Program-made: the position numbers and the translations under genes
The notes under the pieces: generated by a model
What the model was told of the DNA's origin: nothing
What the model saw: only the letters and a program-made list of their open reading frames with translations
The model's database searches: none
Assembly: GCA_964461715.1 (NCBI GenBank)
Contig: CAYWVR010000011.1
Span: 11,289-75,288, forward strand
From: an uncultured Anaerolineales bacterium
Lineage (GTDB): Bacteria; Planctomycetota; Phycisphaerae; FEN-1346
DNA: 64,000 nt
Reading direction: 5' to 3'
In this document: piece after piece, positions 5,815-62,732 of the stretch
Position numbering within the stretch: position 1 is the first letter of the stretch
Layout: each line of letters starts with the position of its first letter

Positions 5815-5836
5815 GTCCCTACGAAAGGAGCCGGCC

Positions 5837-7198
5837 ATGACCGTTCGCACGCTCATCGCGACCGTGGCGGGGCTCGTCCTCGCGGGGACCGCCGCCGCCC
5901 GAAACGTCGACCTGGTGACCCTCCCACCCCGGGAAAAGGTGCAGCTGACGATCTACAACTCCGAGGACCTGACGCTCGTCAAGGAAACCCGGTCGATCAC
6001 CTTCAAGAAGGGCGTCAACCGCCTCCAGTTCTCGTGGGCCGGGACGCTGATCGACCCGACGAGCGTCTACTTCCGCCCCCTCGGCGACGCGGCCGATCAG
6101 ATCGAGGTCCTGGACGCGACCTTCCCCCAGGACCGCCCCCGGGTGCTCATCTGGAACATCGAATCGCAGATCGAGGGGCAGGTGAAGGTCGAGGTGTCCT
6201 ACTTCACCTCCGGCATCTCCTGGGCCGCCGATTACGTTATGATCACCGACGCGGCCGAGACCCGGGCCAGCTTCGACGGGCACGTCACCGTCACGAACCA
6301 TTCCGGCGAGGATTATGAGGGGGCCGAGGTGCGGCTCGTGGTGGGGGTGGTGAACCTGGTGGAGAAGATCCGCCGGCTCGCCGGGGGGATGCCCCCCCCG
6401 GCGCCCCGTTTGCCCGGCGGCGAGGCGGTCCACACCCGCGACGACAAGATGCTCGCGGCCCGCGGGGCCATCGACTTAGCCGAGCGGGCCAAGGCCGACC
6501 GTCCCGCCGAGGACCGTCCCGCCGAGGTCGTCAAGGAAGGGCTCAGCGAGTACTTCATCTTCACGGTCGAGGGCACGCAGACCGTCCCGAACGGCTGGTC
6601 GCGGCGGATGGTCTCGTTCAAGGCGGCTCCGGTCCCCTTCGACATCCTCTACCGCTACCGCCCGCACCAGTACGGCGATCGTCCCGTGCGGTTCTTCCTG
6701 CTGGCCAATGACGCCGAGCACAAGATGGGAGAGTCTCCCCTCCCGGACGGCGTCATCCGCGTCTTCCGCCGGGGCGAGCGCGACGGCTTGGCCTACTACA
6801 CCACGCAATCGACGAAGTACATCCCCGTCAAGGAGAAGATCGAGCTCAACGTGGGCACGGACGACCAGATCGTCTATCAGCGGGTCGTGCTGGACGTTGC
6901 CCGCTCGCGGTTCATCTTCGACCACTCCCCGCCGCGCGTCGTCGGTTGGGACGAGCGCCAGACGTGGGAGGAGGAGGTCCGCAACTACCGCGCGGGGCCC
7001 ATCCGGATGGAAATCCGCCACCTCATCGGCGGCCACGTTGAGTTTACCCTGGAGGATTCGCCCAAGCTCTTCGACTTCCACACGGTCGAGTACACCGTGA
7101 CCATCGGCGCCGGCCGGACGCACACGTGGACGAGCGAAGGCCTCTTCCACCACGGCCGCAACAAGAGCCAGGAGCACATCGAGCTCGTCCGCCCGTGA
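5837..7198 (+). CDS. secreted ~450-aa protein, tandem paralog 2
   Basis: ATG 5837 follows GAAAGGAG. Signal peptide MTVRTLIATVAGLVLAGTAAA. N-terminal block NVDLVTLPPREKVQLTIYNSEDLTLVKETRSITFKKG is near-identical to paralog 3. Confidence 0.7.
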   Translation: MTVRTLIATVAGLVLAGTAAARNVDLVTLPPREKVQLTIYNSEDLTLVKETRSITFKKGVNRLQFSWAGTLIDPTSVYFRPLGDAADQIEVLDATFPQDRPRVLIWNIESQIEGQVKVEVSYFTSGISWAADYVMITDAAETRASFDGHVTVTNHSGEDYEGAEVRLVVGVVNLVEKIRRLAGGMPPPAPRLPGGEAVHTRDDKMLAARGAIDLAERAKADRPAEDRPAEVVKEGLSEYFIFTVEGTQTVPNGWSRRMVSFKAAPVPFDILYRYRPHQYGDRPVRFFLLANDAEHKMGESPLPDGVIRVFRRGERDGLAYYTTQSTKYIPVKEKIELNVGTDDQIVYQRVVLDVARSRFIFDHSPPRVVGWDERQTWEEEVRNYRAGPIRMEIRHLIGGHVEFTLEDSPKLFDFHTVEYTVTIGAGRTHTWTSEGLFHHGRNKSQEHIELVRP

Positions 7199-7208
7199 AA
7201 GGATCGCG

Positions 7209-8573
7209 ATGACACGCGCGCTCGCTCTCTTCGTGGTGGTCCTGGCCGCCACCGCCGCCGAGGCCCGGAACGTCGACCTCGTCACCCTCCCGCCCAGGGA
7301 GGCCGTGCAGCTGACGATCTACAACTCCGAGGACCTGACGCTCGTCAAGGAAACCCGGTCGATCACCTTCAAAAAGGGTGCGAACCGCCTCCAGTTCTCC
7401 TGGGACGGGACGCTGATCGACCCGACGAGCGTCCACTTCCGGCCCGTCGGGGACGCCGCCGAGCGGGTCGAGGTCCTCGACACCACGTTCCCCGCCGACC
7501 GCCCGCAGGTCCTCATCTGGAACGTCGAGTCGAAGGTCGAGGGGCAGGTGGAGGTCGAGGTCAGCTACTTTACGAGCGGCATCTCCTGGGCCGCCGACTA
7601 TATCATGATCACCGACGCCGCCGAGACCGAGGCGAGCTTCGACGGCTACGTGACGGTCACGAATCGCTCCGGCGAGGATTACGAGGAGGCCGAGGTGCGG
7701 CTCGTGGTGGGTGTCGTGAACCTCGTCGAGCCCATCGCCCAACTGGCCCGGCCCGAGGACGCTAAGAATCGGGCGGGTCTTGATCGGGGCCGGAAGGAGG
7801 ACATGCTCCGCCGAAAGTGCGAACTGGCCGAGCCCACCCAGGTCTACGGTCTGCCGGAGAGCTTGTTCTGTGAAGCAGACGCCGCGCCGCCGAAGATCGT
7901 CAAGGAAGGGCTCTCCGAATACTTCATCTTCACCGTCGAGGGCACCCAGACCGTTCCCAACGGCTGGTCACAGCGGATGGTCTCGTTCAAGGCGGCTCCG
8001 GTCCCCTTCGACATCCTCTACCGCTACCGCCCGCACCAGTACGGCGACCGGCCCGTCCGGTTCCTCCTCCTCGCCAACGACGAGGAGCACAAGATGGGCG
8101 AGTCTCCCCTTCCGGACGGGGTGATCCGCGTCTTCCGCCAGGGCGAGCGCGACGGCTTGGCGTACTACACCACGCAATCGACGAAGTACATCCCTATCCG
8201 CGAGAAGATCGAGCTGAATGTGGGCACGGACGACCAAATCGTCTACGAGCGGGTCATCCTGGACGTGGCGCGCTCGACGTTCCTCTTCAACGACCAGGCG
8301 CGCGTGCCGCAGGTCATCGGATGGGACGAGCTTCGCACCTGGCGGGAGGAGGTCCGCAACTACCGCGCGGGGCCCATCCGGATGGAAATCCGCCACCTCA
8401 TCGGCGGGGACGTCGAGTTCACCCTCGAGGATTCGCCCACGCTCTTCGACTTCCGGACGGTCGAGTACACGGTGACCGTCGACGCCGGGAAGAGCCGAAC
8501 GTGGACGAGCACGGGCCTCATCCACCACGGGGTGAGCCAGAAGCAGAACCGGGTCCGGCTCGTCGGCCGCTGA
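7209..8573 (+). CDS. secreted ~450-aa protein, tandem paralog 3
   Basis: ATG 7209 follows GAAAGGA. Signal peptide MTRALALFVVVLAATAAEA. Long stretches are ~90% nucleotide-identical to paralog 2 (for example 6607-6680 vs 7977-8050, identical). Confidence 0.7.
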   Translation: MTRALALFVVVLAATAAEARNVDLVTLPPREAVQLTIYNSEDLTLVKETRSITFKKGANRLQFSWDGTLIDPTSVHFRPVGDAAERVEVLDTTFPADRPQVLIWNVESKVEGQVEVEVSYFTSGISWAADYIMITDAAETEASFDGYVTVTNRSGEDYEEAEVRLVVGVVNLVEPIAQLARPEDAKNRAGLDRGRKEDMLRRKCELAEPTQVYGLPESLFCEADAAPPKIVKEGLSEYFIFTVEGTQTVPNGWSQRMVSFKAAPVPFDILYRYRPHQYGDRPVRFLLLANDEEHKMGESPLPDGVIRVFRQGERDGLAYYTTQSTKYIPIREKIELNVGTDDQIVYERVILDVARSTFLFNDQARVPQVIGWDELRTWREEVRNYRAGPIRMEIRHLIGGDVEFTLEDSPTLFDFRTVEYTVTVDAGKSRTWTSTGLIHHGVSQKQNRVRLVGR

Positions 8574-8698: not shown

Positions 8699-9715
8699 AT
8701 GCCGCTTACGCCCATGCGACAGATCCTCGACGAGGCCCGCGCCGGCGGGTACGGCGTCGGGGCGTACAACGTCAATAACATGGAGCAGATCCAGGCCATC
8801 CTCCAGGCCGCCGCCGAGACCCGCTCGCCCCTGATTATCCAGGCCAGCCGCGGGGCCCTCCAGTACACCAACCTCGTCTACCTCAAGAAGCTCATGGAGG
8901 CCGCCGTCGAGGACAACCCGGACCTGCCCGTCGCTCTCCACCTCGACCATGGGCCGAACCTCGACCTCTGCAAGGAGGCCATCGCCCTCGGCTTCACGAG
9001 CGTCATGATCGACGGCTCCATCGACTACGACACGAAGACCGAGTCCGGCAAGCACCCGGCCCGCAGCCTCGAGGACAACATCCGCGTCACCAAGGAGGTC
9101 GTCGATTACGCCCACGCCCACGGCGTCAGCGTCGAGGGCGAGCTGGGGACCCTGGGCGGCATCGAGGAGGACACCCAGACCGACAAGGTCCTCCTGACCG
9201 AGCCCGACGAGGTCGAGCAGTTCTGCACCGAGACGGGCGTCGACGCCCTGGCCCTGGCCATCGGCACCAGCCACGGGGCCTACAAGTTCAAGCACGAGCC
9301 CGTCCTCGCCCTCGACCTCATCTCCGAGTGCCGCACGCGCATCTCGGACGTCGCCTTCGTCATGCACGGCTCCAGCAGCGTTCCGAAGGAGCTCGTCGAC
9401 GAGGTCAACAACTACGGCGGCGAGTTGCCGGGCGCAATGGGCGTGCCCATCCCGTCGATCCAGGAGGCGATCAAGCGCGGCATCCAGAAGATCAACGTGG
9501 ACACCGACGGCCGCCTCGTCGTCACGGCGGCCATCCGCAAGGTCTTCGTCGAGAAGCCCGGCGAGTTCGACCCGCGCAAGTACCTCGGGCCTGCCCGCGA
9601 GGCCCTCGCCGAGCTCATCGCCTCGAAGATGCGCGACTTCGGCACCGCCGGCCACGCCGGCGACTACACGCCCAAGTCCCTCGAGGACATGAAGAAGGCC
9701 TACGGTACGGCGTGA
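8699..9715 (+). CDS. fba: fructose-bisphosphate aldolase, class II
   Basis: MPLTPMRQILDEARAGGYGVGAYNVNNMEQ...HLDHG...GTSHGAYKF is the class II FBA (FbaA) signature. ATG 8699 follows GAAAGGAG. The ORF-track 5' extension to 8321 is rejected. Confidence 0.9.
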   Translation: MPLTPMRQILDEARAGGYGVGAYNVNNMEQIQAILQAAAETRSPLIIQASRGALQYTNLVYLKKLMEAAVEDNPDLPVALHLDHGPNLDLCKEAIALGFTSVMIDGSIDYDTKTESGKHPARSLEDNIRVTKEVVDYAHAHGVSVEGELGTLGGIEEDTQTDKVLLTEPDEVEQFCTETGVDALALAIGTSHGAYKFKHEPVLALDLISECRTRISDVAFVMHGSSSVPKELVDEVNNYGGELPGAMGVPIPSIQEAIKRGIQKINVDTDGRLVVTAAIRKVFVEKPGEFDPRKYLGPAREALAELIASKMRDFGTAGHAGDYTPKSLEDMKKAYGTA

Positions 9716-11791: not shown

Positions 11792-12526
11792 TCACTCCAC
11801 GTGATTCGCCCCGCAGCGGGCCACGAGCTGGTTCGCCTCGATCCAGGCATCAATCGATTCGCCCGCGTCGGCCCACCAGCCCTCGATCGTCTCGGCGGTC
11901 ATGGTGCCGGCGTCGACGTAATGGTTGTTGACGTCCGTGATCTCCAGTTCGCCGCGGGCCGAGGGCTCGAGCGTGGGGATGACGTCAAAGACGTCCGGGC
12001 CATACATGTAGACGCCGATGACGGCCAGGTCGGAGGCGGGCTCCCTGGGCTTCTCGATGATGCGAGAGATTCGGTCGTCCTCCATCTCGGCGATGCCGTA
12101 CGCCTCCGGGTTCTCGACGGCCTTGAGGAGGACCTTGGCCCCCTCGCTCTGGCTCTCGAAGGCCTCGGCGGCGCTGCGGATGCACTTTTCGAGGATGTTG
12201 TCGCCGAGGATGACGCAGACCTTCTCGCCCTCGGTGAACTCCTCCGCCAGACCCAGGGCCTCGGCGATGCCACCCTCGCCCTTCTGGTAGGCGTAGTGGA
12301 GCCGCCGCAGGCCGAACTCCTCGCCGTTCTCGAGGAGGCGAATGAAGTCGCCGGCCGAGCTGCCGCCCGTCACGATCATGATGTCCGTGATCCCCGCCTT
12401 CACGAGGCACTCGATGGGGTAGTAGATCATCGGCTTGGAGTACACGGGCAGCAGGTGCTTGTTCGTGATCTTCGTCAGCGGATACAGCCGCGTGCCCAGG
12501 CCGCCTGCCAGCACGACGCCTTTCAT
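11792..12526 (-). CDS. sugar-phosphate nucleotidyltransferase (short RfbA/glucose-1-phosphate thymidylyltransferase-like)
   Basis: MKGVVLAGGLGTRLYPLT...HLLPV is the nucleotidyltransferase G-loop. CAT 12524-12526 is preceded on the minus strand by AGGAGGG. The ORF-track extension to 13084 is rejected. Confidence 0.8.
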   Translation of the reverse strand: MKGVVLAGGLGTRLYPLTKITNKHLLPVYSKPMIYYPIECLVKAGITDIMIVTGGSSAGDFIRLLENGEEFGLRRLHYAYQKGEGGIAEALGLAEEFTEGEKVCVILGDNILEKCIRSAAEAFESQSEGAKVLLKAVENPEAYGIAEMEDDRISRIIEKPREPASDLAVIGVYMYGPDVFDVIPTLEPSARGELEITDVNNHYVDAGTMTAETIEGWWADAGESIDAWIEANQLVARCGANHVE

Positions 12527-12683
12527 GGACGCACCCTCCTTCGACTGCGGGGACGGGAATGGGGCCAATGTAGCGGCTGGACCTCGTCGGGTCAATCGCC
12601 GGATGATAGAATGAGATGAACAGGAGGCCCGGTCGCCCGCCCAAGAGACGGGTCTGCGGCCCGGACCCGAAGGGAGGCCGCCC

Positions 12684-14399
12684 ATGCTCCGTCGCACGTC
12701 TTGCCTCGTCGCCTGCGTCGTTCTCGCCGGAACCCTCGCCGCCTCAACCGCCTCGCCCGAGATCGAGGAGAAGGCCCGGCGCCTGGCCGTCGAGGCCAAG
12801 TTTCTCCTGCGCGAGGATCGTCTCTCGGAAGCCGTCCAGAAGCTGGAGCTGGCCCTGGAGCTGGTCCCCGACCACGCAGCCGCGAAGGCGCTCCTGTCCG
12901 ACGCCCGGTCGCGCCTCGTCCGCGTCGACGATCTCCTGGCCGAGGCCGAGGAACATCGTGCCGCCGCCGCCTGGGACGAGGCCCTCGCCCCCGTCACGGC
13001 CGCCCGCGAGATCTTCCCGAAGCATCCCTCCGCCGCCGCCCTCGAGACCCGTATTCGCCGCGAGGCCGCCGAGGCCGTCGTCAAGGACGCGGCCCTGGCG
13101 GGGGACTGGGACGATCCGGGCCGGGCCGAGGCCCTCTACCGGCGGGCCCTGGAGTTCGACCATGAGTCTGCGCCCGCGCGCGAGGGGCTCTGTGAGGTGT
13201 ACGTGGCACGGGGCGAGGCGGCCCTTGCCGACGGGCGTCCGGGGGCGGCCTTGGCGTGGTTCGAGGCGGCCGCGGACGTTTGGTCCGATGGTCCCGGCCC
13301 CGCGCGGGCTTCGGCCGCCCGCGCGACCGTCGAGGGACGAATCCGATTTAAGCTGGCCCACGACGACTCCGTCGCCCCGGCGACGCGGCCCCTGGTGCTT
13401 GCGGTGCGGGATCGGCTGGTCGCTGCCGCGCCGCGCTTCGTCGACCTCTCGCCGCCCCTGCCGCGCGTCGCCGCCCGCGGGTACGCCTGGCGCGTCGAGA
13501 CCGACGGGGTCCGCCTCGACGACGCCGTCCGCCGCGAGGAGCGCGTCCATACCTATACCGTCGGTCGCGAGGCGCCCAACCCCGAGGTCGACCGCGTCCG
13601 GGCCCTCCTCGACACGGCCCTCGAGCGGCTCCGCATCATGCAGCAGGACTACGACCGGGATTGCCCCTTCTGCCACGGCGACGGGTGGGTCCTGTGTCGC
13701 GTCTGTCGTGGCACGGGCCGCGACCCGGCCCATCCGGCGGACCCGTGTCCGGCGTGCACAGGCGGCCGGCATCTGCGGCCGGGCTTCCGCCGGTGCGGAC
13801 GGTGCCGCGGGACGGGGCGGTACGGCAGCACGTCGCTCCGCGATCTTCGGACCCAGGAGGCCCTCGTCGACCGTCTCCAGGCCCGGCTGGCGGCGACGCC
13901 GCTGACGGTCATCCGCGAGGAGCCCGCCACGTGGCCCTACACGATCGAGCACCACGAGCGGACCGGCCGCCTCCAGGCCTCCGCCGAGGTCCTCGACCTG
14001 GAGACGGGCCGGCGCCGCCCGGCGGGGAGCGCCTCGCCCCGCCTCCGCGAGGCCGACACGGCGGTCCAGCGGTCGAATCCCGGCATCGGCATCCCACCCG
14101 ACTCGCTGGACCTGCCGGCCGCCGAGGAGATGGAGCGAGTTCTCCTGGACCGGGCCGCCGAGACCCTGGCCGAGGCGATCCTGGGCGCGGCCCTCGCCGA
14201 CCGCAAGGCCGCCCTCGACGCCGAGGCCGAGGCGCTGCGGGCCCGGGGCGAGGTGTTCGAAGCCCTCGAGCGTCGGGCCGACGCGGCCCTGCCGGCCCGG
14301 GCCCTCGACCCGCAGGCCGACCCGTTCGAGGCGATCCGGGAGGCGCTCAGGACGGTGGAGGCGTCGGGTCCGGCGCGGGGAGCGTCTCGTCGAAGGTGA
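12684..14399 (+). CDS. secreted TPR-like protein with a DnaJ-type zinc finger (4 x CxxCxGxG)
   Basis: ATG 12684 follows GAAGGGAGG. Signal peptide MLRRTSCLVACVVLAGTLAAS. The central segment CPFCHGDG...CRVCRGTG...CPACTGGR...CGRCRGTG matches the DnaJ cysteine-rich domain pattern. The rest is Ala/Arg/Glu-rich and helical. Confidence 0.55.
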   Translation: MLRRTSCLVACVVLAGTLAASTASPEIEEKARRLAVEAKFLLREDRLSEAVQKLELALELVPDHAAAKALLSDARSRLVRVDDLLAEAEEHRAAAAWDEALAPVTAAREIFPKHPSAAALETRIRREAAEAVVKDAALAGDWDDPGRAEALYRRALEFDHESAPAREGLCEVYVARGEAALADGRPGAALAWFEAAADVWSDGPGPARASAARATVEGRIRFKLAHDDSVAPATRPLVLAVRDRLVAAAPRFVDLSPPLPRVAARGYAWRVETDGVRLDDAVRREERVHTYTVGREAPNPEVDRVRALLDTALERLRIMQQDYDRDCPFCHGDGWVLCRVCRGTGRDPAHPADPCPACTGGRHLRPGFRRCGRCRGTGRYGSTSLRDLRTQEALVDRLQARLAATPLTVIREEPATWPYTIEHHERTGRLQASAEVLDLETGRRRPAGSASPRLREADTAVQRSNPGIGIPPDSLDLPAAEEMERVLLDRAAETLAEAILGAALADRKAALDAEAEALRARGEVFEALERRADAALPARALDPQADPFEAIREALRTVEASGPARGASRRR

Positions 14400-15437: not shown

Positions 15438-17177
15438 CTACTCGTCCTCGCCGTCCACGAGATGCACCTCATGCTCCTCCGGCGGCCCATGGGTGGCGTG
15501 ATGGTGCTCGACGTCCTTGCCGCGGATGGCGATGGCGATGCACAGGCCCAGCCCGCCGAAGAGGATCACCAGGGCCATCGACGCCAGGATCGCCGCCGGC
15601 AACCCCAGGCCGAACGCCTTCGTGAAAAGGACCGTCGCTATCACGCCGCCCAGCAGGATGCCCAGCAGGTGCCATCGCCGCGACAGGAGGAACGCCACCG
15701 CGAAGAAGGCGATGAAAATGCCCGGCCCGGCCCGCAGCATCCACGGCGGCCAGCCGTCAGCCGTCCCGTAGAGCGGCTCGGCGATCTCCGAGACCAAGGT
15801 CGCCCCGAGGAAGACCGTCAGCGAGAGCGGCGTGATGAGCCGCACGCACAACTCCCACCATCCGCCCAGGTGAATCTCGGAGACGGCGTTGACGTAGTCG
15901 GTCAGCCGACGCGTCCGGTAAAAGTGGCCGACGACGAGGCACTGAATGAGCCCGACGAAGACGAACCCGTAGTTGGCCCAGTGGTCGGCGATGTCGAGCC
16001 ATCCCAGGCCGCCCTTCGTCGCGAAGAAGAAGATGCCCACCCCGAACCCCGTCGTGCACACGAGGGCCGAAGCCAGGGTGTGGCTCATCCACGCGAACCG
16101 GTCCTCCAGGCCCGAGCACACCGCCTCGACGATCGAGAACTCCGAGTCGATGCCCAGCGACAGGAGCGTCAGGAAGAACAGCACCGCCACGATCGGCGGC
16201 CAGTACGTCCCGAGGTCCGCCAGCTTCGAGATGGCCGTCGGATACGTGATGAACGCCAGTCCCAACCCGCCCCGCACCACCTTGTCCACCGGCTGACCCG
16301 TCTTGAAGGCCAGGAACCCGAGGACCGAAAAGACGACAAACCCGGCGAGGAAGCTGGTCGCGCAGTTCGCGAAGCTCGTGATGAAGGCGTTGTTCGTGAT
16401 ATCGCCGCGCCGGCGGTTGTAGCTCGCGTAGGCGATCATGACTCCGAAGCCGACCGAGAGGCTGAAGAAGATCTGACCGTATGCCTCGACCCAGACGCGC
16501 ATGTCCTTAAGCTTCGCAAAATCCGGCGTCAGGTAGTACTTGATGCCCTCGAGGGCCCCGTCGAGCGTCACCCCCCGGATTCCCAGGATCAGCAGGAGCA
16601 GGATGGGCAGGGGCACCGTGATCAGCACGACGCGGCCGACGCGGTGGACGCCCTTGTAGATGATGAGGAACACCAGGGCCCACGTCAGCGCCAAGCCCGC
16701 CACCAGGTGCCACTGGATCTGCCAGAGGCTGGCGTCAGGGTCGTCCTGGCCCAGGACCTGCTCGAAGTAGGCCCCGGCCCCCTCCGCCGACCAGGGGAGC
16801 ACCGTGCGAAACGAGCCGAAAAGGTAGTTCCACGCGTAACCCATGACAATCGCGTAGTAGAACGCGATGACCGCCGCCACTGCCAGGGCGAACCACCCCA
16901 CCCACTCGAAGCTCTTGTTCAGCCGCCGCAGGGCCTTCGGGGCTGAGCCCTGGAACATCTGGCCGATGCCCATCTCGAGGATCATCAACGGGATGCCCGC
17001 CGTCACCAGGGCCACAAGATACGGAATGAAGAACGCCCCGCCGCCCCCTTCGTAGACTTTGGCCGGGAACCGCCAGACGTTGCCGAGTCCGACCGCGCTG
17101 CCGACCGCCGCCATCACGAACGCGAGCCGGCTGTCCCAGCGGTCGCGCGGGCGACGGGGGCCGGGAAGGTCGCTCAT
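15438..17177 (-). CDS. sodium-dependent transporter, SNF (neurotransmitter:sodium symporter) family
   Basis: AAVGSAVGLGNVWRFP is the hallmark NSS motif, followed by ~12 predicted TM segments. CAT 17175-17177 is preceded on the minus strand by GAGGAG. Confidence 0.9.
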   Translation of the reverse strand: MSDLPGPRRPRDRWDSRLAFVMAAVGSAVGLGNVWRFPAKVYEGGGGAFFIPYLVALVTAGIPLMILEMGIGQMFQGSAPKALRRLNKSFEWVGWFALAVAAVIAFYYAIVMGYAWNYLFGSFRTVLPWSAEGAGAYFEQVLGQDDPDASLWQIQWHLVAGLALTWALVFLIIYKGVHRVGRVVLITVPLPILLLLILGIRGVTLDGALEGIKYYLTPDFAKLKDMRVWVEAYGQIFFSLSVGFGVMIAYASYNRRRGDITNNAFITSFANCATSFLAGFVVFSVLGFLAFKTGQPVDKVVRGGLGLAFITYPTAISKLADLGTYWPPIVAVLFFLTLLSLGIDSEFSIVEAVCSGLEDRFAWMSHTLASALVCTTGFGVGIFFFATKGGLGWLDIADHWANYGFVFVGLIQCLVVGHFYRTRRLTDYVNAVSEIHLGGWWELCVRLITPLSLTVFLGATLVSEIAEPLYGTADGWPPWMLRAGPGIFIAFFAVAFLLSRRWHLLGILLGGVIATVLFTKAFGLGLPAAILASMALVILFGGLGLCIAIAIRGKDVEHHHATHGPPEEHEVHLVDGEDE

Positions 17178-18104: not shown

Positions 18105-19124
18105 CTACATGACGCGCACCTTCACCCGCCGGCCCGTCCGGCTCGACTGCATCGCCGCGAACACCATCGCCAGGCTCTTGATGTTGTCGTGGCACTCGCA
18201 CTGGGGCATGCGGCCGCGGCGGAGGTAGGCGAGCATCTCGCGCAGGGCCCCGTGCATCCCCCCGCATTTCATCTGAACGGAGGCGAGCTTGACGGACCGC
18301 CGGGGTCGCTCGAACCCTTCGTCCCGGGTGACGACCTCGCCCCAGGGGTCGTGGTCCGACTCGTAGAGGAGGGCCCCGCGGGTGCCCTGGACCCGCCAGT
18401 CGCCGTTCCAACTCGTGCGCGGCCCCTCGGCGCACCACGAGCCGCGGTAGGCGAACCGCACGCCGCCGGTCATCTCGAAGACGGCGTTGGCCGCGACGTC
18501 GCCGGCGTACCACGAGCCCTCCGGGTTGAACTCCTCGCACCAGACGGCCACGGGGTCGACGTCGCCGATCATGCGGGCCATGTCGAAGTGGTGAATGGCC
18601 ATATCCAGAATGAGCGGACTCTCCATTTCCGCCCGGAAGCCCCCGAAGTGGGCCGCGAGGAAGAAGTCGCAGTTCAGCGTCGTCGGCGTCCCGATCGTCC
18701 CGCGCCGCACCGTGCGGGCGAGCGACTCGTGCATCGCGTTCCAGCGGCGACTCTGGCTGACCATGTAGAGGCGGTCGGCCGCCTCGCTCGCCTTGACCAT
18801 CCGCCGCCCCTTGGCCATCGACGAGGCCATCGGCTTCTCGCCGATGACGTGAAGGCCCGCCTTCAGACACGCGCAGGTGACCCGGGCGTGGGCCTCGGGC
18901 GTCGTCAGGTCGACGGCAAAGTCGGCCTCGGCGTCCCGGAGGGTCTTCGCGAGATCCTCCGAGGCGACCGTCCCGGCCAGCTCGTATGTCTCGACGGCCG
19001 CCTCGGCCTTCTCGAGGTCCAGGTCGACGACGGCGGCGATCTCGACCTTCTCCTTCTTCAGCGGCGGGAACCAGGCCCGGCTGATCCCTCCCGCCCCCAC
19101 GACGACGGCGCGCGGCTTGGGCAT
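18105..19124 (-). CDS. Gfo/Idh/MocA-family NAD(P)-dependent oxidoreductase
   Basis: MPKPRAVVVGAGGISRAW is an N-terminal Rossmann motif; EKPMA is the family motif; 339 aa. CAT 19122-19124 is preceded on the minus strand by GGGAGGAAG. The ORF-track extension to 19967 is rejected (Arg/Asp nonsense). Confidence 0.8.
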   Translation of the reverse strand: MPKPRAVVVGAGGISRAWFPPLKKEKVEIAAVVDLDLEKAEAAVETYELAGTVASEDLAKTLRDAEADFAVDLTTPEAHARVTCACLKAGLHVIGEKPMASSMAKGRRMVKASEAADRLYMVSQSRRWNAMHESLARTVRRGTIGTPTTLNCDFFLAAHFGGFRAEMESPLILDMAIHHFDMARMIGDVDPVAVWCEEFNPEGSWYAGDVAANAVFEMTGGVRFAYRGSWCAEGPRTSWNGDWRVQGTRGALLYESDHDPWGEVVTRDEGFERPRRSVKLASVQMKCGGMHGALREMLAYLRRGRMPQCECHDNIKSLAMVFAAMQSSRTGRRVKVRVM

Positions 19125-19241
19125 GCGATCTTCCTCCCTATGGCGAGCAGGCGCCGTGATACGCCCCCCGTGTGGGCCGAGCAAGCTTTTTCGGACCTTT
19201 CGGCTTGTCGGCGGGCCCGGGGCGGGATTAGGATGGGGCCC

Positions 19242-20003
19242 ATGACCGAGACCGCTCAACCCTTCCGGCTCGACGGACGCGTCGCCCTGGTCACCGGGGC
19301 GGGGCGGGGGATCGGGCGAGGCGCGGCCGAGGCGCTCGCGCGGGCGGGGGCCGACGTCGCCCTCGTTGCCCGTACCGAGGCCGAGCTCGAGGAGGTCGCC
19401 GCCGCGCTTCCCACGCGCGGCCTCGTCCTGCCGGCCGACGTCACGGACCTCGCCTGCCACGAAGGGCTCGTCGAGCGGACCGTCCGCGAGCTGGGCGGCC
19501 TGGACGTCGTCGTCGCCTGCGCGGGGACGACCCTGCGCGTCCCGGCCGAAGAGATGACCCCCGAGGACTTCGCGCGCGTGATGGACCTCAACGTCACGGG
19601 CCTCGTGTTCCTGGTGCAGAAGGCCGCCCGGGTGATGCTCGATCGTGGCCGGGGGCGCGTCATCCTCATCGCCAGCCTCCTCTCGGAGATCGGGCGCGGC
19701 GAGAACGCCCCGTACGCGGCGTCGAAGGGGGCCGTCCGGCAGCTCGTCAAGCAGCTCGCGGTCGAATGGTCGCCGCGCGGCGTGACCGTCAACGGCATCG
19801 GCCCGGGGTACATCGACACGCAGCTCGTCGCGCGGCTGCGGGACGACCCCGAGTTCAACCGGTGGCTCATGGACCGCGTCGCCGTCGGCCGCTGGGGCAC
19901 GCCGCACGACGTCGGGGCGGCGGCGGTCTACCTCGCCGGCGACGAGGCCTCGTACGTGACCGGCCACATCCTGTACGTCGATGGGGGGTTCCTGGCGAAG
20001 TAG
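19242..20003 (+). CDS. short-chain dehydrogenase/reductase (SDR, KduD/FabG-like)
   Basis: VALVTGAGRGIGRG is the TGxxxGxG motif; NAPYAASKGAV is the YxxxK motif; PGYIDT is also present. An alternative start at 19233 is possible. Confidence 0.85.
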   Translation: MTETAQPFRLDGRVALVTGAGRGIGRGAAEALARAGADVALVARTEAELEEVAAALPTRGLVLPADVTDLACHEGLVERTVRELGGLDVVVACAGTTLRVPAEEMTPEDFARVMDLNVTGLVFLVQKAARVMLDRGRGRVILIASLLSEIGRGENAPYAASKGAVRQLVKQLAVEWSPRGVTVNGIGPGYIDTQLVARLRDDPEFNRWLMDRVAVGRWGTPHDVGAAAVYLAGDEASYVTGHILYVDGGFLAK

Positions 20004-20084
20004 CTCGTGCGCGTTTTTGGTGGCAGCGCCCGGTCGCGGCGCGTATCATGGCCGGCCCGAAGCGACAGGCGCAAGGAGCGGATC

Positions 20085-20321
20085 ATGGGCATCCCCGGCT
20101 ATGTCGAGTACCCGCGGCGGGAGTACTGCAAGGACATCCGCTGCCCGATCCAGCACCAGCTCGAGAAGCACGCGCCGGGGTCGCAGGAGCACGAGGGGGT
20201 CCGCTCCATCTGCAAGACCGAGTGCATCCACACCACCTACGAGTTCCATCACTGGCTCATCGATCACGGCTACGAGATCGTGCGGCCCGCCGAGACGGCG
20301 CCGGCCGGGCCCGACGCGTAA
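20085..20321 (+). CDS. small (78-aa) cysteine-containing protein, hypothetical
   Basis: ATG 20085 follows AAGGAGCGGATC. GC3-biased codons. Translation MGIPGYVEYPRREYCKDIRCPIQ...ICKTECIHTTYEFHHWLIDHGYEIV has a CxxxxC...CxxxC...HH arrangement. It sits between the SDR and aldolase genes on the same strand. Confidence 0.5.
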   Translation: MGIPGYVEYPRREYCKDIRCPIQHQLEKHAPGSQEHEGVRSICKTECIHTTYEFHHWLIDHGYEIVRPAETAPAGPDA

Positions 20322-20332
20322 AGGAACCCCTC

Positions 20333-21214
20333 ATGCCCGAAGCGAGCGGAAACGAGGGCGCCAAGAACTTCGCCCCCGACGTGCCCCAGACCCAGGACCT
20401 CTTCTTCCTGAAGGGGTCGAACAATCTTGATTGGGGAATGAAGGACCGCCTCGCGCGGATCTTCAACCCGGACTCCGGCCACGCGGTCATGCTCGCCTTC
20501 GACCACGGCTACATCCTCGGGCCCACGTCGGGGCTGGAGCGGATGGACCTGACGATCCGCCCCCTCATCCCCCACGCCGACTGCCTCATGTGCACGCGGG
20601 GGGCCCTGCGGCAGATCGTGCCGGCCACGGCGGGCAAGCCCGTCTCGCTCCGCGTCTCCGCCGGCTCGACGGTGCTGACGGACCTCAACGACGAGATCAT
20701 CATGGACATCGAGGAGGCCGTGCGCCTGAACGCCTCCATCATGGCCGTCATGGTCGCCGTGGGTTCCGTGAAGCACGAGGCGACGACCGTGCGGAACCTG
20801 ACGCGCCTCGTCGACGCCGGCACCCGAGTGGGTATCCCCACGCTCGGCGTGACGGCCGTCGGGAAGGAACTGGTGCGCGACGCCCGGTACCTGGCGATGG
20901 CCTCGCGGGTCTGCGCCGAAAACGGCGCCCACGTCGTCAAGACCTACTTCTGCGAGCCGGGCTTCGAGCAGGTCACCGCCGCGTGCCCCGTGCCCATCGT
21001 CATCGCGGGCGGCAAGAAGGTGCCGGAGAAGGATGCCCTGGGCATCGCCGAGCGGGCCCTGAAGCAGGGGGCCGCCGGCGTCGACATGGGCCGCAATATC
21101 TTCCAGGCCGAGGACCCCGTCGCCATGCTCCGGGCCGTCCGGGCCGTCGTCCACGAGGGACGCTCCGGCGACGAGGCGTTCGAGATGTACCGGGACACCA
21201 AGGGCCGCGCCTAG
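20333..21214 (+). CDS. DhnA-type class I aldolase, LsrF family (DeoC/LacD aldolase superfamily)
   Basis: ATG 20333 follows AAGGAA. Motifs VMLAFDHGY, CLMCTRG, VVKTYF, PVPIVIAGGKK and GVDMGRNIFQ are shared with E. coli LsrF and DhnA-type FBA (identity judged from memory of those sequences). Confidence 0.85.
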   Translation: MPEASGNEGAKNFAPDVPQTQDLFFLKGSNNLDWGMKDRLARIFNPDSGHAVMLAFDHGYILGPTSGLERMDLTIRPLIPHADCLMCTRGALRQIVPATAGKPVSLRVSAGSTVLTDLNDEIIMDIEEAVRLNASIMAVMVAVGSVKHEATTVRNLTRLVDAGTRVGIPTLGVTAVGKELVRDARYLAMASRVCAENGAHVVKTYFCEPGFEQVTAACPVPIVIAGGKKVPEKDALGIAERALKQGAAGVDMGRNIFQAEDPVAMLRAVRAVVHEGRSGDEAFEMYRDTKGRA

Positions 21215-21232
21215 CGCGGCCGCGAGGGACGC

Positions 21233-22288
21233 ATGGCCGCCTCCTTCCCCCTCCCCAAGACCCAGCGGGCCGCCGTCTACTACCGCAACGACGACGTGCG
21301 CATCGAGCACCGCCCCGTTCCCGAGATCGGTCCCGGGGAGGTCCTGGTTCGCATCGGCGCCTCGGGCATCTGCGGCTCGGACGTCCTCGAGTGGTACCGC
21401 ATCAAGAAGGCCCCCATCGTCCTCGGCCATGAGGTGGCGGGGGAGATCGTCCGCGTCGGCGAGGGCGTCACGAAGTTCGCGATCGGCGATCGCGTCGCCG
21501 TCAACCATCACGTCCCGTGCAACACGTGCCGCTACTGCCGGGCGGGCCATCACACGGCCTGCGAGACGCTGCACACGACGGCGTTCGACCCCGGCGGGTT
21601 CTGCGAGTATGTCCGGGTGCCCCCGCTCCAGACGGATCGCGGCGTGTATCCGCTGGCGGCGGGGGTCTCGTTCGAGGAAGGCTCGTTCGCCGAGCCGCTG
21701 GGGTGCGTGCTGCGCGGGCAGCAGAGCGTGGACCGGAAGGCCGGGCAGACGGTGGCGGTGCTCGGGGCGGGGGTCTCGGGCATCCTGCACGTGGCGCTGG
21801 CGAAGGCGCTCGGGGCGGGGCGCATCCTCGCGACGGACATCGACGCGTGGCACCTGGAGCAGGCCCGGCGCTTCGGCGCCGACGAGGCGTTCGACGCGAG
21901 GGAGGGCGACGTGGCGGCGCTTCTTCGGGAGGCCAACGGGGGGCGGGGCCTGGACCTCGTGGTCGTCTGTTGCGGGGCGCTCTCGGCGTTCGAGCAGGGC
22001 CTCGCGGCGGTCGATCGCGGCGGGACGGTCCTATGCTTTGCGACCACCGACCCCGGCGTCGCCCTCGAAGTGCCGCTGAACGATTTCTGGCGAAACGACG
22101 TGACCTTGAAACCGAGCTACGGCAATGCGCCCGCCGACGCCGTCACGGCCCTCGACCTTATCGCCGCCGGCCGCGTCCCCGTCGCCGAGATGATCACCCA
22201 CCGCCTGCCCCTGGAAGAGGCCCGGGAAGGTTTCCGCCTCATGGCCACCCCCGGCGGCCCCTCCCTCAAGGTCGTCCTCGAGCCGTAG
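21233..22288 (+). CDS. zinc-dependent alcohol/polyol dehydrogenase (MDR, threonine/sorbitol dehydrogenase-like)
   Basis: GASGICGSD...GHEVAGEIV is the catalytic Zn site; CNTCRYCRAG is the structural Zn site; VLGAGVSG is the Rossmann motif. Confidence 0.85.
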   Translation: MAASFPLPKTQRAAVYYRNDDVRIEHRPVPEIGPGEVLVRIGASGICGSDVLEWYRIKKAPIVLGHEVAGEIVRVGEGVTKFAIGDRVAVNHHVPCNTCRYCRAGHHTACETLHTTAFDPGGFCEYVRVPPLQTDRGVYPLAAGVSFEEGSFAEPLGCVLRGQQSVDRKAGQTVAVLGAGVSGILHVALAKALGAGRILATDIDAWHLEQARRFGADEAFDAREGDVAALLREANGGRGLDLVVVCCGALSAFEQGLAAVDRGGTVLCFATTDPGVALEVPLNDFWRNDVTLKPSYGNAPADAVTALDLIAAGRVPVAEMITHRLPLEEAREGFRLMATPGGPSLKVVLEP

Positions 22289-22302
22289 CGGCCGTCCAGG
22301 AC

Positions 22303-23358
22303 CTAGAACACCGACTCCCGATACCCGAACTCCTCCGCCACCGCTCGGGTCTCGTCGAGCGTCGTGGCGGCGCCGGTGCAGGTGGGGTCGGAGAGGCAGA
22401 CGGCGGCGGCGGAGACGCCGAGGCGGAGGCTCTCGTCGAGCGGCCACCGCTCGTGGAGGCCGTAGAGGACGCCCGCGCAGAAGGCGTCCCCCGCCCCGGC
22501 CCCGCCGCGGATGTACCCTTCCGGCAGGGCCAGCGACGGTTGCCAGAGCTCCTCTCCGTCGGCCGTCCGGACGTAGCCGCCCTCGGGCAGATGGATGCAG
22601 ACGAGCTTCCCCACGCCCAGGTCCAGCAGGTCCTTCGCCGCGGCGCGGATGGCCGCCGGGTCGGGCTCGTCGCCGGGCTTCAGGTCGCGGCCGGTGGTCT
22701 TGCCGGCCTCGAACTCGTTGAGGATCGCGTAGTCGGCGTGCTTGAGGGCGGGCCGGACGATCTCGGGGAACCGGTCGCTGTCCTCGCTGACGACGTCGAT
22801 GGACGTTTCGATGCCCGCCGCCTGGCATGCCGCCAGCACCCGCGCGGCCACGGTGCCGAACTCGGGGTCGGCCTCGTCGAAGCGGTCCAGGAGCAGGAGG
22901 TACCCGAGGTGGAGGATGCGGGCCCGGATCGTCTCGACGGGCACGTGCTCGGGGCCGAAGCGGGCGTTGGCGCCGCGATTGTGGAAGAAGGTGCGGCGGC
23001 CGGTGGGCTTGGCGACGATGACGAGGGTGTAGCTGGTGGGAGCGTCGGGGTCGGCGCCGAGGGCCGCCCGGTCGATGCGATGGCGGGCGAGGTCGTCGCG
23101 GATGAACTCGCCGTCGGGATCGGCGCCCGTCAGGCCGATGGCCTCGAGGGGCAGGGCCCGGCCCGGCGTGCCGTCGGGCCCCACGGGAGGCCCGAAGCGC
23201 GCCAAGTCCACCAGGCAGTTGTAGGGCGAGCCGCCGGTGCCCCGGCCCTGGTCGAGGATGTTGGCGAGGGTCTCCTCGCGGGGAAAGAGGTCGCAGATGT
23301 AGACGTGGTCGATGATCCAGTTTCCCGCACACGCGATGCCGCGCCGCGTCTTGCTCAT
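22303..23358 (-). CDS. carbohydrate kinase, PfkB/ribokinase family
   Basis: N-terminal GG motif (NILDQGRGTGGSPYN) and C-terminal GAGDAF ATP/anion-hole motif (GGAGAGDAFCAGVLYG); 351 aa. CAT 23356-23358. The ORF-track extension to 23523 is rejected. Confidence 0.8.
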   Translation of the reverse strand: MSKTRRGIACAGNWIIDHVYICDLFPREETLANILDQGRGTGGSPYNCLVDLARFGPPVGPDGTPGRALPLEAIGLTGADPDGEFIRDDLARHRIDRAALGADPDAPTSYTLVIVAKPTGRRTFFHNRGANARFGPEHVPVETIRARILHLGYLLLLDRFDEADPEFGTVAARVLAACQAAGIETSIDVVSEDSDRFPEIVRPALKHADYAILNEFEAGKTTGRDLKPGDEPDPAAIRAAAKDLLDLGVGKLVCIHLPEGGYVRTADGEELWQPSLALPEGYIRGGAGAGDAFCAGVLYGLHERWPLDESLRLGVSAAAVCLSDPTCTGAATTLDETRAVAEEFGYRESVF

Positions 23359-25341: not shown

Positions 25342-26163
25342 TCACGCGCGCTGCGTCGAGGCCCGGGTCGTGATGCCGGTGGGTGGTAGAAGGATGGGAC
25401 CCTCGGGCGGCGCCTCCCCCGACATCAAGCGGTCCAGCACCGCCGCCCCCTCGTGGCCTACCTCATCGAGCGGCAACGCGACGCTCGAAAGGGTGGGGCG
25501 GGCCATGCGGCAGAGGAGATCGTCGTCGTCGACGCCGAGGATCGCGACGTCCTGCGGCACCTTTGCGCCGATGCGGCGGCAGGCCTCCAGCACGGACACG
25601 GCGCGCGTGTCGTTGCAGGCCATCACGCCGACGGGCCTGGCGAGCCCTTCGAGCCACCGGGCGATGTCCTGCTGCGCCCCGTCCCAGCTCCAGTCGAGTC
25701 GAATTGCCGGGTCCGGCTCGTAGGCGCTCACCTCGAAGCCCGCCTCCTCGACCCGCCCGGCGTAACCCGCGCCCCGCCGGTCCGAAAAGCCGAACCCCGG
25801 GAACCCGCAGTACGCGAACCGCTCCAGGCCCAGATTCAGGAGGTGCTCGGCCCCCAGGCGCCCCGCGGCCCTCGGGTCCGGGATGACCTGCGGCAAGGGA
25901 GCGTCGGCCAGGGTGCCGGAGACGTTCACCGCCGCCACGCCGCGCTCGGCCATGGCCCGGGCGACGCGTTCGCGGCGGACGTTGGCCAGGATGCCGTCGG
26001 GTTCCCAATCGAGAATCTCGGGGAAGTCGACGCCCGGCTGGAACTGCGTGGAGAAGACCCAGGAGGGCTTATCCTCGGCATAGCGGGCCACACCGGCGGC
26101 AATTCCGCGATGATAGCTCTGGTTAACGGGGATGAGCATCGCCACGCGCACAAGATGGGCCAT
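25342..26163 (-). CDS. XylR-type periplasmic-binding-protein-like sugar-sensor domain protein that lacks the AraC HTH (truncated paralog of the next gene)
   Basis: MAHLVRVAMLIP.. aligns along its whole length with residues 1-270 of the downstream XylR-like regulator (VNVS, RFA.CG, VMACND, LEACRR, VLGVD..., PLSSV). It stops where the paralog's AraC-type HTH begins. CAT 26161-26163 is preceded on the minus strand by GGAGGGG. Confidence 0.7.
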   Translation of the reverse strand: MAHLVRVAMLIPVNQSYHRGIAAGVARYAEDKPSWVFSTQFQPGVDFPEILDWEPDGILANVRRERVARAMAERGVAAVNVSGTLADAPLPQVIPDPRAAGRLGAEHLLNLGLERFAYCGFPGFGFSDRRGAGYAGRVEEAGFEVSAYEPDPAIRLDWSWDGAQQDIARWLEGLARPVGVMACNDTRAVSVLEACRRIGAKVPQDVAILGVDDDDLLCRMARPTLSSVALPLDEVGHEGAAVLDRLMSGEAPPEGPILLPPTGITTRASTQRA

Positions 26164-26257: not shown

Positions 26258-27412
26258 CTAACAGACCCGGTTCTGCATCCGGAAATCGGTGGGCGTCATG
26301 CCCGTCTCGCGCTTGAAAATCTGAGAGAGGATCTGGGCGCGGCGGAAGCCGGACCGCTCGGCCACCGCGGGCATGGGAAGGTCCGTCTCCACCAGTATCT
26401 GCCGTGCACGCTCCAGGTGAACCCGCCGGATCTCGTCGCGCGGCGATCGCTGGAGCTTCTCGCGGAACCGTCGCTCCAGGCTCCGACGCGACACGCCCGC
26501 GGCCGTCACCACGTCCGGCACGTCGATGGGGTGGCCGGCGTGCTCGCGGATGTAGCGCAGCGCCTCGACGACCGCCTCGTCCTCGACGGCCATGACGTCG
26601 GTCGACGGGCGGGCGATGACCCCCATCGGGGCGAACGTGACCGGCTTCTTCGGGGCGGCCTTGCCCTTCCACAAGCGGGCCAGCATCGCCGCCGCCTCGT
26701 ACCCGATCTTCTCGAGCGGCTGGACCACGCTCGAGAGGGGCGGCAGGGCCAACTCGCACATGACCGGGTCGTTGTCCACGCCGAGCACCGCCACGTCCTC
26801 CGGCACCTGGAGGTCGGCTCGGCGGCAGGCCTCCAGCACGTCGAAGGCCCGCACGTCGTTGCAGGCCATCAGGGCCACCGGCTTCTGGAGCGACCCGAGC
26901 CACGCCACCAGGCTCTCCTGCTCCTTCTCCAGCGTCCAGTCCGTGCCGGGCACGTGCGGCTCGGCGTAGGACTCGACCGTGCAGCCCAGCTCGCGGATGC
27001 GGGCCTCGAAGCCCTGTTGCCGCCCCGCGGACATGCCCAGGCCCTGGTACCCGCAGAACGCGAAGCGCTCGAAGCCGCGGGCCTTGAAATGGTCGGCGCC
27101 GACCCGGCCGATGGCGTGGCCGTCGCTGATGACCCGCGGAAGCCGCCCGTCCGGGGCGGAGGCCGAGACGTTCACCGCCGGGACGCCCTTCTCGATCGCC
27201 GCGTCGACGACCTCGGCGTGGTGCGTCTGGAGGAGGAACCCGTCGGGGTCCCAGTCGCGAATCCAGCCCAGCCGCGGGCGGTACCCGTGGAGCTGAATAG
27301 ACAGGGCCCAGGGCCCGTGGGTCCGGCTGTACTGAGCGATACCTCGCATCAGGCCCCGCCCGTAGGCGTCGCCGGCGGCAATGAACAGGCCCACGCGCTT
27401 CAGGTCAGCCAT
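26258..27412 (-). CDS. XylR-like transcriptional regulator (sugar-binding domain + AraC-family HTH)
   Basis: N-terminal PBP-like domain; C-terminal AraC HTH (YIREHAGHPIDVPDVVTAAGVSRRSLERRF...ERSGFRRAQILSQIFKRETGMTPTDFR). CAT 27410-27412 is preceded on the minus strand by GGAGG. Confidence 0.8.
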   Translation of the reverse strand: MADLKRVGLFIAAGDAYGRGLMRGIAQYSRTHGPWALSIQLHGYRPRLGWIRDWDPDGFLLQTHHAEVVDAAIEKGVPAVNVSASAPDGRLPRVISDGHAIGRVGADHFKARGFERFAFCGYQGLGMSAGRQQGFEARIRELGCTVESYAEPHVPGTDWTLEKEQESLVAWLGSLQKPVALMACNDVRAFDVLEACRRADLQVPEDVAVLGVDNDPVMCELALPPLSSVVQPLEKIGYEAAAMLARLWKGKAAPKKPVTFAPMGVIARPSTDVMAVEDEAVVEALRYIREHAGHPIDVPDVVTAAGVSRRSLERRFREKLQRSPRDEIRRVHLERARQILVETDLPMPAVAERSGFRRAQILSQIFKRETGMTPTDFRMQNRVC

Positions 27413-61864: not shown

Positions 61865-61937
61865 GGTCTATCCTGCTCCCGTCTCTTGGGATTGCCCCAT
61901 CGCGCCGGGTCGGAAACCCGCCGCGCCCATCGCTCGT

Positions 61938-62693: not shown

Positions 62694-62732
62694 GGGTTGT
62701 CCTTCAGTAACCTCGGATCGCGTCGCGCGTGC

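Follow-up and report, generated by a model that had tools for sequence, protein, structure and literature searches.

The 64,000-nt stretch of DNA analysed here (the window) carries, at positions 20085–22288 of the plus strand, three consecutive genes that encode a small cysteine-containing protein (the Cys protein), an enzyme of the LsrF family and a zinc-dependent alcohol dehydrogenase (Zn-ADH). We propose that these genes form the functional unit, as one local form of a triad that many lineages, most of them uncultured, possess; that their products dispose of a small phosphorylated deoxy-ketose, which would be oxidised and then cleaved with coenzyme A (CoA) into dihydroxyacetone phosphate (DHAP) and acetyl-CoA; and that the adjoining genes for a Gfo/Idh/MocA oxidoreductase (Gfo), a short-chain dehydrogenase/reductase (SDR) and a PfkB-family kinase are neighbours by descent. 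This reading is tentative, and we give it a probability of about 0.4. The protein families involved are known; the arrangement and the accessory protein are new.

A three-gene operon recurring across phyla

The genes of the triad share one strand, with spacers of 11 and 18 nt, and the 81-nt spacer between the SDR gene and the Cys protein gene holds a promoter-like match (Table 1). This match might give the triad a start of its own, a weak suggestion that comes from consensus only, planctomycete promoters being poorly known. The window proteins were compared by tblastn and with hidden Markov models (HMMs) against about 160 related loci (80 LsrF-like, 60 PfkB and 20 further loci, designated here by L and a number). 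Six lineages outside the window's clade were sampled through homologues of the Cys protein, and the order Cys protein, LsrF-family enzyme, Zn-ADH was found in all six, with unrelated flanks each time (L150; L151–153, from Scalindua; L154, from a metagenome-assembled genome (MAG) labelled Promethearchaeota; L155/156, from Aminicenantes; L157/158; and L159/160). In these triads the DeoC-family enzyme has 261–280 aa and the Zn-ADH 334–355 aa, and identity to the window proteins is 45–47% for the aldolase, 51–63% for Zn-ADH and 61–72% for the Cys protein. The short aldolases lack the first 31 residues and still pass the LsrF model (336–390 bits).

In a neighbour-joining tree, the short enzymes formed a clade of their own. 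The window enzyme, with 293 aa and an N-terminal extension, fell outside this 261–280-aa clade and clustered with long forms associated with Dak kinase genes; E. coli LsrF was also placed among the long forms. The window's lineage, thus, has a long-clade lsrF gene in the aldolase position of the triad, and one relative (L082) adds a whole Dak module. The occupation of one position by short and long enzymes is a hint, not proof, that both do similar work. Desulfobacterales (L008) and Aminicenantes (L065) have a pair that lacks the Cys protein gene, with a Zn-ADH gene directly after an LsrF-like one. After this pair, both loci encode a small glyoxalase/VOC-like protein of 124–131 aa (L008, 9055–9450; L065, 11936–12310), which is a second, unrelated VOC-type partner of the LsrF-like family.

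The Cys protein gene has a third-position GC content (GC3) of 0.96. Homologues of its product, about 70 aa long and 59–81% identical across phyla, occur in Phycisphaerae, Scalindua, Aminicenantes, Sumerlaeota, Chitinivibrionales, Glassbacteria and the Promethearchaeota-labelled MAG. An alignment of 51 members, with the window protein as reference, revealed invariant residues that include R11, R12, E13, C15, C20, C43, C47, H55 and W57, all retained in the window protein. The AlphaFold2 model (predicted local distance difference test score of 84) had no structural match in the PDB. At every locus where a homologue of this gene is not cut by a contig end, a Zn-ADH gene is present, and the Cys protein would most likely be a metal-binding accessory of the dehydrogenase.

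Orthologues of Zn-ADH, 51–85% identical, are present in all triad loci. Among solved structures, sorbitol dehydrogenase (160 bits) and L-threonine 3-dehydrogenase (153 bits) come closest, together with xylitol and arabinitol dehydrogenases, and the closest curated models are threonine 3-dehydrogenase (TDH), scyllo-inosose 3-dehydrogenase and galactitol-1-phosphate 5-dehydrogenase, all scoring below cut-off (TDH models 185–194 bits, the best of them 194 against a cut-off of 380). Since its nearest relatives are polyol and threonine dehydrogenases, Zn-ADH looks like an oxidiser of secondary alcohols. Catalytic (C47, H66, E67, E154) and structural (C96, C99, C102, C110) zinc ligand sets can be read from the sequence, as can the cofactor motif G178xGxxG. 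From Asp202, with which the second Rossmann strand ends, we read a probable preference for NAD.

The LsrF-type enzyme and its Dak-associated relatives

Model scores and the active-site match assign the aldolase-fold protein to the LsrF type, not to the housekeeping aldolase FbaB. Its score on the LsrF equivalog model NF006081 (EC 2.3.1.245) was 430 bits, above the cut-off of 297, and the match extended over model positions 1–290 of 291. Among proteins of solved structure, E. coli LsrF (3gkf and 4p2v) was the best match (E 5e-103); the alignment to E. coli LsrF spans residues 9–289 with one short gap per side, and the N-terminal extension is common to both proteins. The catalytic and phosphate-binding residues described for LsrF, namely Asp57, His58, Lys203, Gly226, Gly227, Asp251, Met252, Gly253 and Arg254 (PMC2728841), are present in the window enzyme in nine out of nine cases, with identical numbering. 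Lys203 forms the Schiff base, Asp57 acts as general base, and His58, Gly226, Gly227, Gly253 and Arg254 bind phosphate; Asp251 differs from close homologues, and the authors of the structure could not demonstrate aldolase activity (PMC2728841). According to Marques et al. (2014; cited through PMC12263705), LsrF is a thiolase that depends on CoA and closes the processing of phosphorylated autoinducer-2 (phospho-AI-2). The window enzyme probably works like E. coli LsrF, binding the DHAP half of a phosphorylated C5-type ketone as a Schiff base.

The archaeal ADH synthase and other DhnA-type aldolases (FbaB, GriI/BagB) share fold and superfamily with the window enzyme, and, after LsrF, Methanocaldococcus jannaschii MJ0400 is the solved structure that matches best (115 bits). 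The curated cut-offs of ADH synthase, archaeal fructose-bisphosphate (FBP) aldolase and BagB were, however, all missed. Rejected assignments comprise the housekeeping class I FBP aldolase FbaB/DhnA (NF040816, 104.6 bits vs 430; PRK09250.1-1, 19.5 vs 277), ADH synthase (AroA', TIGR01949, 151 vs 299) and BagB (93 vs 500), and no dehydroquinate-synthase family was present among the scanned genes flanking the operon that could act as a DHQ synthase II partner. These scores agree with the preliminary description of this DNA, which had judged the aldolase unlikely to be glycolytic, given a class II fba gene at 8699–9715 (confirmed at 326 bits), and had asked for its placement relative to LsrF and FbaB; grouping with FbaB, which would have spoken against that judgement, was not seen.

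A scan with the LsrF-like enzyme, taking one genome per species, yielded the 80 LsrF-like loci, with enzymes 58–76% identical, in Planctomycetota, Verrucomicrobiota, Lentisphaerota, Kiritimatiellia, Bacteroidales, Acidobacteriota, Desulfobacterota and others. Within 10 kb, none of the 80 loci had homologues of the window's Gfo, Cys protein, PfkB or SNF-family symporter, and its HAD phosphatase was absent as well, bar one weak exception. Zn-ADH was found in two of them, directly downstream (L008, 39% identity; L065, 42%). In about 55 of 81 LsrF-like loci (the 80 plus L001), genes for Dak1 and Dak2, the two subunits of a dihydroxyacetone-type kinase, directly precede the LsrF-like gene on its own strand. 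They are often preceded in turn by genes for a VOC-like protein of about 105 aa (u104) and a cupin-like protein of about 230 aa with a signal peptide (u229), neither of which matched a Pfam or NCBIfam family. This five-gene Dak1-Dak2-LsrF operon is widespread, occurring in Planctomycetota, Verrucomicrobiota, Lentisphaerota, Kiritimatiellia, Bacteroidales and others, and apparently uncharacterised. Examples with the order cupin-like, VOC-like, Dak1, Dak2, LsrF-like are seen in L082 (1100–4960) and, upstream of position 10001, in L014 and L052. Other contexts were also observed: in L010 (12506–13804) the LsrF-like locus has RuBisCO-like protein, GntR and SDR genes, and in L070 (10904–13009) and L071 the LsrF-like gene is followed by one for a 701-aa class II aldolase-SDR fusion. 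Both contexts hint at deoxy-sugar or salvage chemistry.

Close relatives, on contigs whose LsrF-like enzyme is 77–79% identical to that of the window, carry different versions of this locus. L082 encodes, in order, the Cys protein, u229, u104, Dak1, Dak2, LsrF and Zn-ADH, with PfkB convergent. L084–86 keep this order with Dak1 gone and Dak2 cut to an 83-aa fragment, and L083 and the window have only the genes for the Cys protein, LsrF and Zn-ADH. Searches of the window by tblastn with Dak1 and Dak2 of L082 found nothing (best E 0.04), and no genes for the cupin-like and VOC-like partners were found there. To judge from this gene content, the Dak1/Dak2 kinase has been lost from the window's locus.

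Proposed chemistry and competing explanations

Gene order, family membership, active-site conservation and co-occurrence are observed. Taken together with the enzyme families, they would accommodate a two-step scheme. Zn-ADH would oxidise the C4 hydroxyl of a ketose-1-phosphate to a 2,4-diketone phosphate. Were the substrate a 5-deoxypentulose-1-phosphate, the product would be exactly P-HPD (3-hydroxy-5-phosphonooxypentane-2,4-dione, CH3-CO-CHOH-CO-CH2-OP), the substrate of LsrF; from the structures, we infer that C4-hydroxyl oxidation of 5-deoxyribulose-1-phosphate yields exactly this compound. The LsrF-type enzyme would then bind the DHAP half to Lys203 through a Schiff base and transfer the acyl half to CoA, releasing DHAP and acetyl-CoA. 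In most genomes, the substrate of this clade would be supplied by the Dak1/Dak2 kinase encoded just upstream. Dak-type kinases phosphorylate the CH2OH group beside a keto group, as needed for a ketose-1-phosphate, and their chemistry, thus, fits the supply of such a substrate.

A lead on the substrate comes from L157, where a class II aldolase-family gene flanks the triad on one side and genes for GNAT, MtnA (378 bits vs a cut-off of 271) and MtnP (325 vs 306) flank it on the other. MtnP and MtnA make 5-deoxy- and 5-methylthio-ribulose-1-phosphate (PMC6079011). An APH-family kinase encoded beside the L154 triad was considered as MtnK, had no NCBIfam match and was dropped. One of the closest known systems is the disposal of 5-deoxyribose, or DHAP shunt (MtnP or DrdK, MtnA/DrdI and the class II aldolase DrdA/Ald2), which has in common with the proposed route the conversion of a 5-deoxy-ketopentose phosphate into DHAP and a C2 unit; in one organism (L157), moreover, the triad is set inside an MtnP–MtnA–class II aldolase cluster. 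The two differ in that the cleaving enzyme of the shunt is a metal-dependent class II enzyme, whereas that of the triad has a class I Schiff-base LsrF-type fold, that a dehydrogenase is obligatory in the triad, and that the proposed C2 product is acetyl-CoA, not acetaldehyde. The Tdh–Kbl pathway (threonine dehydrogenase and 2-amino-3-ketobutyrate CoA ligase) first turns a secondary alcohol into a beta-dicarbonyl compound and then splits this compound with CoA, yielding acetyl-CoA. The triad resembles it in the proposed two-step logic and in its related Zn-ADH; however, its cleaving enzyme is not pyridoxal phosphate-dependent and, given the conserved phosphate-binding residues, its substrate must carry a phosphate.

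Several observations weigh against this proposal. The window aldolase belongs to the long Dak clade and the triads elsewhere contain the short one, 45–47% identical to it; the two forms may do different things. MtnA and MtnP are encoded nearby in L157 only, and neither in the window nor at any other locus, which makes the substrate lead a single case. Six loci (L094, L095, L097 and L147–149) keep the Cys protein, Zn-ADH and PfkB genes without an aldolase at the locus, which is awkward if a reactive diketone is made for the thiolase, unless a second copy lies elsewhere in the genome. Apart from PfkB, the 64-kb window yielded no candidate kinase to make the proposed substrate. Finally, sequence cannot separate retro-Claisen (thiolase) from retro-aldol cleavage on this scaffold.

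The last point opens the way to a rather unlikely alternative, in which the LsrF-like protein acts as a genuine class I aldolase on a ketose-1-phosphate, producing DHAP and a short aldehyde, and Zn-ADH then reduces or oxidises the aldehyde as a detoxification. Its fold and Schiff-base lysine are those of class I aldolases, some bacteria have an alcohol dehydrogenase acting after the DHAP shunt, and the survival of Zn-ADH and the Cys protein beyond the aldolase (L094–97, L147–149) would be explained. The known 5-deoxyribose and DHAP-shunt routes, moreover, end in DHAP and acetaldehyde (PMC6079011). Yet the sole characterised member of the family is a CoA-dependent thiolase whose aldolase activity could not be demonstrated (PMC2728841; PMC12263705), the LsrF-specific Asp251 is retained, and the dehydrogenase has its closest relatives among the polyol and threonine dehydrogenases, which act on secondary alcohols, not among primary-alcohol or aldehyde reductases. 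Given the thiolase precedent, the aldol cleavage of a ketose-1-phosphate put forward in the preliminary description should not be assumed. The idea that the window gene is a genuine LsrF, degrading phosphorylated AI-2 taken up from other bacteria, draws on the same family assignment (equivalog model, E. coli LsrF match and identical active site), and we consider it extremely unlikely. No FGGY kinase (lsrK-type), ABM/LsrG-type isomerase, LsrACDB-type sugar ABC transporter or LsrR-type (SorC-family) repressor is encoded among the 46 window open reading frames (ORFs) scanned. Unlike E. coli and Salmonella LsrF, the window enzyme has no lsr operon around it and is partnered by Zn-ADH and the orphan Cys protein, while its relatives in other genomes are partnered by the Dak1/Dak2 kinase and VOC-like and cupin-like proteins, not by Lsr proteins. 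The phospho-AI-2 made by LsrK and LsrG is, therefore, probably not the physiological substrate.

Two further explanations, both quite improbable in our view, concern the extent of the unit. Under one of them, all six genes form a single polyol or deoxysugar pathway in which PfkB phosphorylates, the aldolase cleaves, and Gfo, SDR and Zn-ADH prepare the substrate. The genes are tightly packed (gaps of 11–117 nt), Gfo is retained in one lineage, the N-terminal part of PfkB is weakly similar to ketohexokinase, and PfkB could stand in for the lost Dak kinase. In addition, a convergent PfkB/Zn-ADH pair persists in at least 14 related contigs, including those in which toxin–antitoxin or transposase genes have entered between the two; PfkB adjoins Zn-ADH in L082, L087, L090–97, L099 and L147–149, and 10 of the 14 contigs retrieved at 68% identity or more in a metagenome scan with PfkB have the two genes convergent. 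Nevertheless, the six genes failed as a conserved unit across the roughly 160 loci, where membership was rejected for SDR and Gfo and found no support for PfkB. No SDR orthologue was found in any of these loci (best match 33% identity), and a Gfo orthologue (71% identity) occupies the matching position only in L147–149 and is absent from the other related loci. PfkB, absent from the vicinity of all 80 LsrF-like loci, persists with Zn-ADH where the aldolase is missing: in L094, L095 and L097 the Cys protein and Zn-ADH genes are parted only by a small lipoprotein-like ORF, and L147–149 encode SNF, HAD, Gfo, a xylose-isomerase-like TIM-barrel protein, the Cys protein, Zn-ADH and PfkB. PfkB homologues at about 52% identity adjoin a 185-aa gene read by eye as elongation factor P, among other neighbours also read by eye as housekeeping genes. 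Since unrelated synteny (SNF–HAD, sigma/anti-sigma, HypF) is kept in the same genomes, shared descent is enough to explain the adjacency of PfkB, which is confined to close relatives. Under the other explanation, to which we assign an equally low probability, the LsrF-like gene is what remains of a Dak operon in decay and does little at present, and Zn-ADH and the Cys protein serve a purpose of their own. The stepwise loss from L082 through L084 to L083 and the window, the loss of the aldolase as well in L094–97 and L147–149, and the 13 lineage-specific substitutions of the window protein, the most of any copy (4–8 in its sisters), would fit such a decay. However, the reading frame is intact with a GC3 of 0.95, no catalytic or phosphate-binding residue is missing, the exchanges in columns that are otherwise invariant are conservative (M to I, I to L), and the Dak-less three-gene arrangement is the norm in other phyla. 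With only a mild excess of substitutions, none of them at a catalytic position or other functional site, decay of this gene was rejected.

The three-gene operon, thus, remains our favoured unit, and the grouping in the preliminary description has to be revised. That the six genes lie side by side is a fact; that they make one functional cluster is mostly not borne out. On genome-context comparison, the triad was conserved and the six-gene cluster broke apart, so the suggestion of an uncharacterised cluster survives in a narrower form, as a conserved uncharacterised unit that unites the aldolase with one dehydrogenase. Among the three dehydrogenases invoked, Zn-ADH is a recurrent partner, and SDR and Gfo are not. 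The kinase-plus-aldolase logic built on PfkB found no co-conservation, the usual kinase partner of this enzyme clade being Dak1/Dak2.

The genomic neighbourhood of the operon

At a G+C content of about 70%, raw ORF lists of the window are crowded with shadow frames. Third-position GC nevertheless singled out one frame everywhere from 17.2 to 25 kb, and the frames so chosen are exactly the six ORFs of the preliminary description, whose coordinates and families were borne out by translation and by Pfam and NCBIfam assignments (Table 1). Plausible ribosome-binding sites precede most of them, and all six products are identical from end to end to deposited proteins from one NCBI contig. The nearest named homologues of the window proteins are from Phycisphaerae MAGs. 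No NCBIfam model reached its cut-off for the PfkB protein. We annotate this part of the window as an operon of three genes whose neighbours are unrelated or unproven, in place of a six-gene sugar cluster.

Table 1. Positions of the triad genes, the candidate promoter and the adjoining genes in the window
Feature	Position	Strand	Basis and remarks
Gfo/Idh/MocA oxidoreductase	18105..19124	-	Pfam; neighbour, membership in the unit without support
SDR, KduD/gluconate-5-dehydrogenase-like	19242..20003	+	Pfam adh_short_C2, 218 bits; neighbour, membership without support
Sigma-70-like promoter match in the spacer between SDR and the 78-aa Cys protein	20020..20049	+	GTGGCA-18-TATCAT, 9/12 consensus matches
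78-aa four-cysteine protein ('Cys70' family), triad gene 1	20085..20321	+	No Pfam/NCBIfam family
LsrF-family class I aldolase-fold enzyme, long Dak-associated clade, triad gene 2	20333..21214	+	NF006081
Zn-dependent medium-chain dehydrogenase, polyol/threonine-dehydrogenase type, triad gene 3	21233..22288	+	ADH_N + ADH_zinc_N
PfkB-family kinase, convergent neighbour	22303..23358	-	Pfam PfkB, 106 bits

The remainder of the window is ordinary chromosome. It encodes the class II Fba, three DUF4139-like paralogues, the SNF-type sodium symporter, the HAD phosphatase, Ser/Thr kinases, XylR-like regulators, hisBCD, ndk, nifUS, cstA, dxr, rseP and a NiFe hydrogenase. The sodium symporter that had been noted near the cluster is present (15438–17177); it belongs to the SNF (neurotransmitter/amino-acid) family and to no sugar-transporter family. 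As for the two XylR-type regulators reported there, the ORF at 26258–27412 is full length, whereas that at 25342–26091 (minus strand) has only the periplasmic-binding-protein-like domain, without the AraC-type helix-turn-helix of its neighbour, and is possibly a pseudogene or a truncated paralogue. Just upstream of the class II fba gene, three paralogues that match DUF4139 weakly lie in tandem (4621–8573, plus strand), an arrangement repeated in L083. An NTP_transferase ORF listed at 430 aa (11792–13084, minus strand), with orthologues of 243–244 aa in relatives, overlaps by about 400 nt an opposite-strand ORF of 571 aa without family (12684–14399, plus strand), and one of the two starts is, therefore, miscalled. 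At 60554–63587 (minus strand), a gene for a NiFe-hydrogenase large subunit lies near one for an FAD/NAD-binding subunit with a DHODB-type Fe-S domain, which suggests a cytoplasmic bidirectional or sulfhydrogenase-type enzyme.

Implications for LsrF-like enzymes

In the searchable literature, we found no description of the triad, the Cys protein family or the Dak-LsrF operon, and LsrF was not meaningfully combined there with dihydroxyacetone kinase, Planctomycetes, 5-deoxyribose or the DHAP shunt. A broader proposal, which we regard as distinctly unlikely, is that the triad and the Dak1-Dak2-LsrF operons of the PVC group (Planctomycetota, Verrucomicrobiota and allies) and Bacteroidales constitute an undescribed oxidative thiolytic route for deoxy-ketose phosphates. 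It would run, for example, from 5-deoxyribulose-1-phosphate, derived from the radical-SAM by-product 5'-deoxyadenosine, via P-HPD to DHAP and acetyl-CoA, with the help of a small metal-binding protein, and enterobacterial AI-2 degradation would be a late recruitment of an older enzyme. If real, such a route would achieve what the DHAP shunt does without forming an aldehyde, and would conserve energy.

Thousands of genes are named 'LsrF' or 'AI-2 aldolase' in organisms without an lsr operon. One of them, the orphan 'lsrF' of Syntrophobacter fumaroxidans (Sfum_2464), was interpreted as an AI-2 receptor on annotation alone (PMC10787695). The quorum-sensing label on such genes is probably wrong, and their gene contexts point to ordinary carbon or by-product metabolism instead. 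The Cys protein of about 70 residues, highly conserved, without annotation and resembling no solved structure, is worth characterising. Together, the triad and the Dak operon offer two concrete, assayable enzyme sets for LsrF chemistry outside enterobacteria.

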